A stretch of DNA of 8,854 nucleotides from a virus. Taxonomy: Duplodnaviria > Heunggongvirae > Uroviricota > Caudoviricetes. The DNA lies in the IMG/VR virus record IMGVR_UViG_2778261069_000005, positions 1 through 8,854 of that record; one strand, written 5' to 3'. Of this stretch, positions 6,410 through 8,854 are shown piece by piece (positions within the stretch are counted from its first letter, which is position 1; each line of letters starts with the position of its first letter). The notes beneath the pieces are model-generated. The model was not told the origin of the DNA, ran no database searches, and was given only the letters and a program-made list of their open reading frames with translations. A program made the translations under genes and the position numbers.

Positions 6410-6588
6410 AGCATCCTCACGATAATATCCGGGTAGGCGCGATAACTTTCGTCTACTCCGTTACAAAGCGAGGCTGGGTATTTCCCGGCCTTTCTGTTAT
6501 CCGAAATCCACTGAAAGCACAGCGGCTGGCTGAAGAGATAAATAATAAACGAGGGACTGTATGCACAAAGCATCTCCTGTTGAATTAA
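6406..6588 (+). CDS. Lambda orf60a-like small protein (60 aa from ATG 6406)
   Basis: An ATGA overlap with the exo stop gives a 60-aa product, the same length and arrangement as lambda orf60a as I recall the lambda map. The ORF track starts it at an upstream ATG at 6400. Confidence 0.55.
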
Positions 6589-6752
6589 GAACGAGTATCG
6601 GGATGGCACATAGCCTCGCTCAAATTGGAGTCAGGTTTGTGCCAATACCAGTAGAAACAGACGAAGAATTTCATACGTTAGCCACATCCCTTTCACAAAA
6701 GCTGGAAATGATGGCGGCGAAAGCAGAAGCAAACGAGAGAGACCCGGCATGA
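6561..6752 (+). CDS. Lambda orf63-like small protein
   Basis: 63 aa, overlapping the previous gene by 28 nt, the same length and overlap as lambda orf63 as I recall. Confidence 0.55.
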   Translation: MHKASPVELRTSIGMAHSLAQIGVRFVPIPVETDEEFHTLATSLSQKLEMMAAKAEANERDPA

Positions 6753-6832
6753 CAACAACAGAATGCATTTTTCTGGCAGCAGGCTTCATATTCTGTGTGC
6801 TTATGCTTGCCGACATGGGACTTGTTCAATGA
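6749..6832 (+). CDS. Candidate 27-aa hydrophobic peptide (MTTTECIFLAAGFIFCVLMLADMGLVQ)
   Basis: ATGA start/stop overlaps at both ends (with orf63 upstream and the 71-aa ORF downstream). Single predicted transmembrane segment. No other support. Confidence 0.3.
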   Translation: MTTTECIFLAAGFIFCVLMLADMGLVQ

Positions 6833-7044
6833 CACCTCAGCAGGAAAACGCCCTTCGCAGCATTGCCCGTCAGGCTAATTCTGAAATCAAAAAAGCCAGA
6901 CAGCAGTTTCCGGATAAAAACGTCGATGACATTTGCCGTAGCGTACTGAAGAAGCACCGCGAAACGGTAACGCTGATGGGATTCACACCGACTCATTTAA
7001 GTCTGGCGATCGGCATGTTAAACGGCGTCTTTAAGGAGCGATGA
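6829..7044 (+). CDS. Hypothetical protein, 71 aa (alternative start at 6763 gives 93 aa)
   Basis: ORF in the early-left accessory region, start coupled to the preceding small ORF by ATGA overlap. No recognisable motif. Confidence 0.5.
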   Translation: MTPQQENALRSIARQANSEIKKARQQFPDKNVDDICRSVLKKHRETVTLMGFTPTHLSLAIGMLNGVFKER

Positions 7045-7066
7045 ACATGAAAAGCAAAATCATCAG

Positions 7067-7088
7067 GGAGCTACAGGCTCCTTTTTTA
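7067..7088 (+). terminator. Intrinsic terminator
   Basis: GGAGC (7067-7071) pairs with GCTCC (7077-7081), loop TACAG, followed by TTTTTT. Confidence 0.6.
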
Positions 7089-7142
7089 TTGTTCGCATTC
7101 ACCCTCAAGCGTATTAACCAACAATTCAGGGATTAATGGAAG

Positions 7143-7364
7143 ATGGCAGACATCATTGATTCAGCATCAGAAATTGAAGAATTACAGCGCAACACAGCAA
7201 TAAAAATGCACCGCCTGAACCACCAGGCTATATCTGCCACTCATTGTTGTGAGTGTGGCGATCCGATAGATGAACTAAGACGTCTGGCCGTTCAGGGTTG
7301 TCGGACTTGTGCAAGTTGCCAGGAGGATCTGGAGCTTATCAGTAAACAGAGAGGTTCGAAGTGA
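7143..7364 (+). CDS. TraR/DksA-family C4 zinc-finger protein (lambda Orf73-like)
   Basis: 73 aa with two CxxC pairs (CCEC ... CRTC) spaced as in TraR/DksA C4-type zinc fingers. Location and size match the lambda orf73 TraR homologue. Confidence 0.8.
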   Translation: MADIIDSASEIEELQRNTAIKMHRLNHQAISATHCCECGDPIDELRRLAVQGCRTCASCQEDLELISKQRGSK

Positions 7365-7966
7365 GCGAAATTAACTCTCAGGCACTGCGTGAAGCGGCAG
7401 AGCAGGCAATGCATGACGACTGGGGATTTGATGCGGACCTTTTCCATGAGCTGGTAACACCATCGATTGTGCTGGCACTGCTGGATGAACGGGAAAGAAA
7501 CCAGCAATACATCAAACGCCGCGACCAGGAGAACGAGGAAATTGCGCTAACGGTAGGGAAGCTGCGTGTTGAGCTTGAGGAAGCAAAATCAAAACTCAAC
7601 GAGCAGCGTGAGTATTACGAAGGTGTTATCTCGGATGGGAGTAAACGTATTGCTGAACTGGAGAAAAGCGAAGAGCAACTCATTAACGAGCGTGACCATG
7701 CTGAGTCTGCTTTAGCTGATATGTACTTCGCAACAACCGGGGATAGGCCTGAGTGGAGTAACTGTTTCAGTTTTTCAGATGCTGTCGATGCCGTAGTTGA
7801 CAGAATTGCTGATTTAGAAGCCAAACAGCCATCGCCAGTAGTACCGGAAGAAAAACCAATGCCTAACCCTCTTAGCATGTACACAGTTGATGCTGTTGCA
7901 GCTATTGCAGAGGTGAGAGGCTGGAACGCCTGCCGTGCAGCCATGCTTAAGGGAGATAAATCATGA
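7361..7966 (+). CDS. ea22: Ea22-like protein with a central coiled-coil region, GTG start
   Basis: 201 aa. N-terminal part (MSEINSQALREAAEQAMHDDWGFDADLFHELV...) resembles lambda Ea22 as I recall it; the C-terminal part appears different. GTGA overlap with the upstream stop and Shine-Dalgarno GAGAGG upstream. Confidence 0.65.
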   Translation: MSEINSQALREAAEQAMHDDWGFDADLFHELVTPSIVLALLDERERNQQYIKRRDQENEEIALTVGKLRVELEEAKSKLNEQREYYEGVISDGSKRIAELEKSEEQLINERDHAESALADMYFATTGDRPEWSNCFSFSDAVDAVVDRIADLEAKQPSPVVPEEKPMPNPLSMYTVDAVAAIAEVRGWNACRAAMLKGDKS

Positions 7967-8730: not shown

Positions 8731-8854
8731 TGAACCGCCCCGGGTTTCCTGGAGAGTGTTTTATCTGTGAACTCAGGCTGCCAGATCATCGTTTCCGATG
8801 GAAGCATAATAAGCTTTTTCTGCTTCTGCCGGAGGAGTATGGCCCAGCCTTTCC
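8731..8854 (-). mobile_element. Right end of a second IS3-family copy in inverted orientation (partial): transposase C-terminal codons on the minus strand 8773-8853, terminus at 8731
   Basis: Exact reverse complement of positions 4-127. Minus strand encodes the same ...LERLGHTPPAEAEKAYYASIGNDDLAA-stop tail, and the element ends TGAACCGCCCC at 8731. Confidence 0.75.

Follow-up and report, generated by a model that had tools for sequence, protein, structure and literature searches.

The locus described here raises the question of whether a 27-codon open reading frame (ORF), lying between orf63 and a 71-codon ORF in the early operon of a lambdoid prophage, is a gene in its own right. The window, that is, the whole stretch of DNA that was analysed, comprises 8,854 nucleotides of the IMG/VR record IMGVR_UViG_2778261069_000005, and its plus strand carries the early-left (pL) operon with the stretch that is called the exo-xis region in the literature. 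The genes are arranged in the order of a cI-like repressor, an N-like protein, cIII, kil, gam, bet and exo, followed by orf60a (DUF1317), orf63 (DUF1382), the 27-codon ORF (hereafter orf27), the 71-codon ORF (orf71), orf31, the TraR/DksA-type orf73 and an Ea22-like gene (Table 1). Small ORFs of the exo-xis region have been implicated in blocking the initiation of host replication ('bin'), and the region is being actively investigated because of its influence on the induction of Stx prophages in EHEC. An earlier note, made from the sequence of the window, suggested that orf27 could be a small membrane protein gene overlooked between orf63 and the 71-aa ORF. This reading is supported by frame conservation, selection and hydrophobicity, and orf27 is probably a genuine protein-coding gene of the lambda/Stx-type exo-xis block, encoding a very hydrophobic peptide of 27 residues that probably spans the inner membrane once.

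[quoted passage not shown]
Feature	Positions	Strand	pN/pS	Remarks
gam	4525-4941	+		
bet	4947-5732	+		
exo	5729-6409	+		
orf60a (DUF1317)	6406-6588	+	0.27	ATGA-coupled to exo (6406-6409); 28-nt overlap with orf63
orf63 (DUF1382, 63 aa)	6561-6752	+	0.36	PGAP: DUF1382 family protein; PHROG 292, E = 8.5e-35
ATGA junction 1	6749-6752	+		orf63 stop (TGA 6750-6752) / orf27 start; context cccggcATGAcaaca
orf27 (27 codons)	6749-6832	+	0.16	Peptide MTTTECIFLAAGFIFCVLMLADMGLVQ; predicted single hydrophobic helix (core C6-A21), no basic residue
Frame B segment across orf27	6763-6828	+	1.35	Extends the 71-aa ORF to 93 aa (N-terminus of Stx-phage Orf61)
ATGA junction 2	6829-6832	+		orf27 stop / orf71 start; context gttcaATGAcacct
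orf71 (71 aa)	6829-7044	+	0.19	WP_000188870.1; intact counterpart of lambda 'orf61'; start at 6829 in PGAP
A6 run inside orf71	6889-6894	+		A7 in lambda; frameshift creates the annotated 61-aa 'orf61'
orf31	7041-7136	+	0.22	ATGA-coupled to orf71; 31 aa, or 29 aa if the start is ATG 7047
Intrinsic-terminator-like hairpin (7065-7083) and T run	7065-7091	+		Inside orf31
orf73 (TraR/DksA-type)	7143-7364	+	0.23	
Ea22-like gene	7361-7966	+		

The earlier note described orf63, orf27 and orf71 as a chain linked by consecutive ATGA stop/start overlaps and regarded such a chain as unlikely to arise by chance. The chain of overlapping ORFs is confirmed, with orf27 at the coordinates given there, and a third ATGA at 7041–7044 leads from the stop codon of orf71 into the start codon of orf31. 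The same device joins accepted genes of the operon: ATGA overlaps are found between bet and exo (5729–5732), between exo and orf60a and between ea22 and the next gene (7963–7966), and a GTGA overlap is found between orf73 and ea22 (7361–7364). Of the ten gene-to-gene junctions in the exo-xis region, six consist of an ATGA overlap and one of a GTGA overlap. In a simulation with the base composition of the window, the chance that an ORF bridges two genes with ATGA at both ends is about 0.006, in agreement with the expectation of the note. The overlap at both ends of orf27 is kept in 271 loci in which orf27 follows orf63 and in 34 loci in which it follows a methyltransferase gene. Variants at the second junction also keep the coupling geometry: 6829 A>G produces GTGA and is synonymous in orf27, and 6827 C>T (Q27*) produces TAATG.

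The peptide MTTTECIFLAAGFIFCVLMLADMGLVQ has a GRAVY value of 1.62 and ranks first among the 84 ORFs of 20–40 aa in all six frames of the window, so that the description of it as hydrophobic holds well. Its core CIFLAAGFIFCVLMLA (C6–A21) has a Kyte–Doolittle value of 2.81, the highest among the same 84 short ORFs, and the 21 residues from C6 to V26, a hydrophobic stretch of sufficient length for a membrane helix, have a value of 2.42. T occupies the second codon position in 14 of the 27 codons. The only charged residues are acidic ones, E5 and D22. The absence of any basic residue is unusual for a membrane anchor.

Searches of Pfam, NCBIfam, PHROG and PDB sequences with the peptide returned nothing significant, and tblastn against phages returned the same lineage only. 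The suggestion that the gene was missed by standard annotation stands in part. PGAP leaves orf27 unannotated both in the E. coli genome with 100% identity over this region and in the other RefSeq genomes inspected, but the exact peptide has been deposited as a 'hypothetical protein' (UniRef A0A0A2SGE8_ECOLX), and it has been gene-called on 981 contigs. The peptide sequence is absent from the literature searched, including the supplements of two small-ORF surveys. To judge from these searches, orf27 is essentially undescribed, although it belongs to a known kind, namely small hydrophobic phage proteins that are coupled within an operon.

The 741-nt stretch from 6400 to 7140 is 100% identical to E. 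coli TB354 and shares 96–99% identity with lambda, 933W, VT2-Sakai, Phi24B and numerous further Stx phages, and it is found in 3377 of 5426 complete E. coli genomes. Relatives were collected from IMG/VR, RefSeq genomes of E. coli, lambda and metagenomes and were analysed by scripts; the large alignment of relatives was made by MAFFT with fast settings. The haplotype set consists of 128 distinct 971-nt haplotypes, 116 of which carry the 27-codon ORF, and the metagenome set consists of 103 loci with this ORF. Apparently divergent homologues of orf71 (51–73% identity) were found to be two error-ridden assemblies or an IS-interrupted copy and represent no real diversity. A scan of one genome per species returned mostly apparent lambda spike-in contaminants in unrelated 'species' and hence no cross-genus diversity.

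The earlier note proposed conservation of the 27-aa frame in related prophages as a check, and the frame is conserved. The ORF is 84 nt long in all 116 haplotypes, with zero indels, and every neighbouring gene has some indel haplotypes. The peptide is identical in 167 of 196 copies of orf27. Among 26 distinct substitution events, 14 are synonymous in the frame of orf27, compared with 27% expected (binomial P = 0.003), and the same events give 5 and 3 synonymous changes in the other two sense frames (3 in frame B, the frame that extends orf71). The frequent polymorphisms, 6757 A>C, 6760 A>G/T, 6781 A>G, 6820 A>G and 6829 A>G, are all silent third-position changes (n = 147, 95, 52, 151, 35 and 13). 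Amino acid replacements are rare and mostly conservative (T3A, F8L, F15L, A21S and V26I), and the charged replacements I14K and V17E each occur in one locus per data set. The pN/pS ratio of orf27 is much lower in its own frame than in frame B (Table 1) or in the third sense frame (1.41), and the ratios of accepted neighbour genes range from 0.19 to 0.36. Consistently, 12 of 20 events in the metagenome set are synonymous in the orf27 frame (P ~0.002) versus 3 and 3 in the other two, and the peptide is identical in 90 of the 103 loci, although the two data sets share many polymorphisms and are not fully independent. Because the block occurs only in Escherichia, with at least 92% identity among its copies, the selection test of orf27 is based on 20–26 substitution events. 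Within this limit of a few dozen events, the selection signal is as strong as that of accepted genes, and the pattern of substitutions clearly points to frame-specific purifying selection at the protein level.

Such conservation might also arise for a nucleic-acid reason, for example a structured RNA, a binding site for a protein or a gene on the antisense strand, in which case orf27 would be untranslated and its ORF would be there by chance. The overall divergence of the segment is low, and the pN/pS ratio is lowered to 0.32 in the antisense frame that shares wobble positions with orf27 (0.61 and 1.94 in the other two antisense frames); both observations speak for this explanation. However, the variation shows codon periodicity in the sense frame of orf27, and its ratio is the lowest of all six frames. 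The predicted fold of the 151-nt RNA around orf27 is no more stable than shuffled sequences (z = +1.31), and Rfam contains no family matching orf27; of the whole window, Rfam recognizes only the lambda cIII thermoregulator (4281–4339). There is no promoter-like site on either strand between 6300 and 7400, and a double ATGA bridge would still have to arise by the small chance given above. We consider it extremely unlikely that the conservation of orf27 reflects a nucleic-acid element rather than a protein.

According to the earlier note, the lambda map places orf61 here in a different arrangement. This is correct, and comparison with the window traces the difference to a +1 A frameshift. In NC_001416, orf61 (lambdap37, NP_040613) is annotated at 30839–31024, overlaps orf63 by 20 nt and contains the whole of orf27 (30925–31008). 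Lambda orf27 differs from that of the window by 3 nt, all of which are synonymous, and the peptide is identical. The annotated start of lambda orf61 is an ATG inside the 3' end of orf63, where the window has ACG. Because lambda has one extra A in the 71-codon gene (Table 1), orf61 stops shortly after the frameshift. The 61-aa product as annotated is a composite of three parts: it starts upstream within orf63, runs through the frame-B leader into the initial third of orf71 and, after the frameshift, ends in a tail that is out of frame. Since the window has neither the upstream ATG nor the A7 frameshift, lambda orf61 as annotated is not encoded there. About a dozen contigs in non-Escherichia assemblies, taken as lambda contamination, have a match of 214 nt as opposed to 213 nt of the intact gene, and this suggests that the extra A is real in laboratory lambda. 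A review notes independently that Orf61 of lambda 'appears to be truncated' relative to Stx phages and that it models as unstructured. From the sequence comparison, lambda 'orf61' appears to be a frameshift artefact, and the gene map used in studies of the exo-xis region appears to be wrong here.

Stx phages have a second version of Orf61. The 93-aa ORF named vb_24B_7c in Phi24B and L0070 in 933W contains orf27 except for its first 14 nt, and it could be argued that this 93-residue Orf61, starting from the ATG at 6763, is the real product and that the 27-codon ORF is its out-of-frame shadow. Almost every haplotype leaves the 93-aa ORF open, many phage records list it as a gene, and Orf61 of Phi24B has been modelled in the literature as a protein of 93 aa. 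In addition, Escherichia sp. E1V33 has an apparent 13-nt deletion in orf27 that fuses the ATGA-coupled start to the frame of orf71, and this lineage makes a 93-aa protein in frame B. However, the pN/pS ratio of the extension exceeds one, and its common replacements include R>G (n = 151), T>A (n = 35) and H>Y. No Shine–Dalgarno sequence precedes the ATG at 6763, with an anti-Shine–Dalgarno duplex energy of -1.7 kcal/mol, and the start chosen by PGAP is the ATG of orf71. The published models disagree on residues 1–23 and omit these residues from the statistics. In the lineage without orf27, furthermore, the equivalent Met is the start of orf71 and is preceded by a separate ribosome-binding site (RBS). 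The N-terminal extension carried by the 93-aa Stx 'Orf61' is, as judged by substitutions, without sign of protein selection. It is quite improbable that the 93-residue form is the real product, and the 27-codon gene is preferred as the coding unit of this segment.

The distribution of orf27 among relatives is that of a module. A 101-nt segment carrying orf27 is present in 3145 of 5426 complete E. coli genomes (~58%), with up to five copies per genome and ~4,200 copies in total, so even a modest function of the peptide would be widespread. orf27 always lies directly upstream of orf71. It is preceded by orf63 in 271 loci and by a phage Dam methyltransferase gene in 34 loci, and in the latter context the mosaic boundary coincides exactly with the ATGA, and the start codon of orf27 follows a strong GGGAGG. 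Because orf27 keeps company with orf71, occurs behind two different upstream genes and has its boundary at the ATGA, it behaves like an independent gene in mosaic phage genomes. Divergent homologues of orf63 (72–79% identity) run by ATGA or GTGA straight into Ea22-like, DUF4222 or other genes with no orf27 in between, and hence orf27 is not a universal companion of orf63. One lineage of 17 loci has orf71 without orf27. There, orf71 lies behind an unrelated 250-aa gene, has a divergent N-terminus and is preceded by its own TGAGG RBS. On the evidence of these loci, orf27 is optional for orf71.

These features suggest how the chain may work. Ribosomes that finish orf63 (or the methyltransferase gene) at its TGA would restart at the overlapping ATG at 6749, assisted by a modest Shine–Dalgarno sequence, whose anti-Shine–Dalgarno duplex energy is -5.1 kcal/mol behind orf63 and -10.3 kcal/mol behind the methyltransferase gene. 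Ribosomes that finish orf27 at TGA 6830–6832 would in turn restart at the ATG at 6829 of orf71. Because the Shine–Dalgarno sequence of orf71 seems weak (-3.9 kcal/mol, at about the 25th percentile of all window positions), orf71 probably depends on this hand-over from orf27. Thus, orf27 would yield a product of its own and also serve as a relay that passes ribosomes on to orf71, and its peptide would insert into the inner membrane. We infer the translation of orf27, the termination–reinitiation coupling and the membrane insertion from the sequence. If coupling operates as proposed, the locus is a clean natural example of a micro-gene acting as a link in a translational-coupling chain.

The relay might even be the whole role of orf27, which would then be translated solely as a ribosome bridge to the weakly signalled orf71, with a functionless peptide. 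Such a bridge would account for the lineage that lacks orf27, in which orf71 has its own TGAGG in place of the weak Shine–Dalgarno sequence found behind orf27. It would also fit E1V33, where orf27 is destroyed but the in-frame fusion to orf71 keeps ribosome delivery, and the Q27* and GTGA variants, which preserve the geometry of the junction. However, any open frame of the right phase would suffice as a bridge, so that the low pN/pS ratio of orf27 is left unexplained. Nor does a bridge explain why the peptide is identical in about 85% of copies, or why its replacements are mostly conservative hydrophobic ones and only rarely charged. A functionless peptide is therefore unlikely, and orf27 is better regarded as a gene whose peptide product is itself under selection in addition to any role as a relay.

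Small single-pass inner-membrane proteins of enterobacteria include KdpF (29 aa), YohP (27 aa), AcrZ, MgtS and MgrB, and KdpF is also free of basic residues. Like these proteins and the 'Entero67K' intergenic micro-ORFs (PMC11188072), orf27 encodes fewer than 50 residues with one hydrophobic helix, appears to be under purifying selection and is missed by pipelines. Unlike these small membrane proteins, orf27 is phage-borne, lies inside an early operon, overlaps its neighbours at both sides and is unrelated in sequence. The orf27 peptide is not found in those supplementary files of the 'Entero67K' study (PMC11188072) that were searched.

Termination–reinitiation coupling at 4-nt overlaps has been described (Huber et al. 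2019, as cited in PMC11188072). In common with such pairs, the junctions of orf27 are same-strand ATGA or GTGA overlaps within an operon, and the downstream start may be poorly signalled. In contrast to the usual pairs, two junctions flank a single 27-codon gene, and a short ORF would form the link of a chain. The small size and strong hydrophobicity of the peptide, together with its frequency in prophages, also resemble type I toxins (Hok, Ibs, Ldr and TisB). However, such toxins are kept translationally silent, whereas the orf27 peptide is proposed to be co-translated in an operon. A type I toxin–antitoxin system was considered and rejected: Rfam shows no antisense RNA family in the region, neither strand of 6300–7400 has a promoter-like site, the peptide matches no toxin family, and the ORF does not stand alone but is embedded in an operon by overlaps at both ends.

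Ribosome profiling of lambda (Liu et al. 2013, as cited in PMC8614690) added orf2311 (7 aa) and orf2313 (31 aa) to the exo-xis region. These ORFs belong to the same operon and size class as orf27, and the 31-aa ORF is probably the next link of the chain, which also shows coding-type selection, but the new ORFs that this source lists for the region do not include one of 27 aa. The annotations of lambda orf61 and of Orf61 in Phi24B and 933W cover the same DNA but read another frame across orf27. Because orf27 lies inside the annotated lambda orf61, ribosome footprints on orf27 may have been credited to orf61. Ribosome profiling is stated in the literature to confirm orf61, and the footprints behind this statement could lie on orf27 and the 5' portion of orf71.

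The same overlap bears on published genetics. In the Δorf61 mutants (PMC6213356), the annotated ORF was replaced by an 87-nt scar. Because the whole annotated ORF is replaced, such a deletion removes all of orf27 in lambda and all but 14 nt of it in Phi24B, and plasmids with frameshifts in orf61 may also hit orf27. The phenotypes of these mutants, like the ribosome footprints assigned to orf61, therefore need to be divided anew between orf27 and orf71, and, speculatively, some phenotypes of the published 'orf61' deletions may belong to orf27. Lambda is the best-annotated phage, and a conserved gene for a putative membrane peptide of 27 codons lies under both versions of Orf61. It is of note that orf27 occurs even in lambda, where it is hidden by a mis-annotated gene under active experimental study.

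KdpF, AcrZ and MgtS are small enterobacterial membrane peptides that modulate inner-membrane proteins. By analogy, it is tempting to speculate that the orf27 peptide acts on an inner-membrane protein of the host as a modulator in the early phase of lytic growth. That the 27-residue peptide, rather than Orf61 as drawn, is an early lambda/Stx effector on a host inner-membrane target and lies behind part of the phenotypes of orf61 deletion or of the 'bin' block is a doubtful proposition. The phenotypes meant here are the lysis/lysogeny bias, host survival and the block of host replication initiation.

The neighbours of orf27 in the chain are themselves small. An NMR structure exists for lambda Orf63 (PMC10869804). 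The length of orf71 differs from 216 nt in only 5 of the 128 distinct haplotypes, and AlphaFold2 predicts three helices for its product (residues 3–26, 32–49 and 54–64) with a mean pLDDT of 89.6. The RefSeq name of orf71, 'cell division protein ZapA' (PF05164), is not supported: the Pfam match is below threshold, with 16.1 bits against a cut-off of 23.8, and a Foldseek search of the PDB with the predicted fold gave nothing below E = 1, with ZapA missing from the 22 best entries.

The pN/pS ratio of orf31 is likewise low in its own frame (Table 1) and is 1.71 and 1.38 in the other frames. Its anti-Shine–Dalgarno duplex energy is -8.4 kcal/mol, and an AAGGAG lies 8 nt before 7047, a spacing that is best for the ATG at that position. 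A terminator has been predicted between orf61 and orf73 in lambda and Phi24B (PMC4195576), and the terminator-like hairpin of the window lies inside orf31. The orf31 peptide is identical in lambda, deposited proteins of 29 and 31 aa exist, and orf31 is probably the 31-residue ORF (orf2313) of lambda ribosome profiling.

The ORF that follows orf71 in the ATGA-coupled chain, orf31, also carries a signature of coding-type selection, with a Nei-Gojobori pN/pS ratio over the haplotypes of relatives of 0.22 vs 1.71 and 1.38 in the other two sense frames, despite the intrinsic-terminator hairpin within it. Its AAGGAG motif has the best spacing to the ATG at the alternative start, and 29-aa versions of the ORF have been deposited for phages 1H12 and SfI. 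orf31 is probably the 31-aa "orf2313" of lambda ribosome profiling.

Coordinates of the features in the window
Feature	Position (nt)	Strand	Description
orf31	7041-7136; alternative start 7047	+	31-codon ORF 3' of orf71
Intrinsic-terminator hairpin	7065-7083		within orf31
orf71	6829-7044		71-aa gene
A6 run	6889-6894		
orf63	6561-6752		gene upstream of orf27
Lambda_thermo	4281-4339		cIII thermoregulator element, at the start of cIII
Terminal inverted repeat	4-127 and 8731-8854		124 nt, perfect

The A6 run is present in the window and in nearly all relatives, whereas reference lambda (NC_001416, about 30,860) has A7, which shifts the frame of the 71-aa gene. A match one base longer is also obtained from contigs of many non-Escherichia genome assemblies, apparently through lambda contamination. 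Because these apparent contaminant contigs also give the longer match, A7 in laboratory lambda seems to be a true mutation and not a sequencing error. GTDB representative assemblies, among them those of Shewanella, Bradyrhizobium, Pseudomonas, Paenibacillus and Kitasatospora, contain lambda DNA (loci L104-L117). It reaches up to near full length on contigs of about 48.4-48.5 kb and is almost certainly sequencing-control contamination.

Many copies of orf71 are named "cell division protein ZapA" in RefSeq. The Pfam match behind this name lies below threshold, at 16.1 bits where the cut-off is 23.8. AlphaFold2 models orf71 as a three-helix bundle, and comparison of this model with the PDB gave no significant match.

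An apparent 13-nt deletion within orf27, the 27-codon ORF, is seen in Escherichia sp. E1V33 (L103 1330-1716). There, the ATGA-coupled start codon of orf27 is joined to the orf71 frame to give a 93-aa protein, and the gene upstream of the fusion is unrelated and encodes a 355-aa protein. The fusion amounts to a natural experiment: the orf27 peptide would be lost, but ribosome delivery to orf71 would be retained.

The coding-selection signal is weaker for orf63 (63 aa, DUF1382) than for the unannotated orf27. In a crude event count, 14 of 44 events in orf63 are synonymous (P=0.39), which is little excess, and its pN/pS of 0.36 is modestly under the 0.55 and 0.53 of the off-frames. Orf63 is nonetheless a protein of solved structure (PMC10869804). 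The Rfam Lambda_thermo match (88.5 bits) fits a lambda-type pL operon, as expected.

In one E. coli genome, an IS3-family element, which we take to be IS629-like, is inserted within orf71 (L087 1093-2701), leaving orf27 intact and creating a chimeric 108-aa ORF. A perfect inverted repeat is observed at the window termini, and window bases 1-128 share 96.9% identity with the right end of the L087 element. Because the terminal repeat matches this IS end, two inward-facing IS ends flank the 8.6-kb segment of immunity and early-left genes. This arrangement points to a prophage remnant or to a composite-transposon-like geometry.
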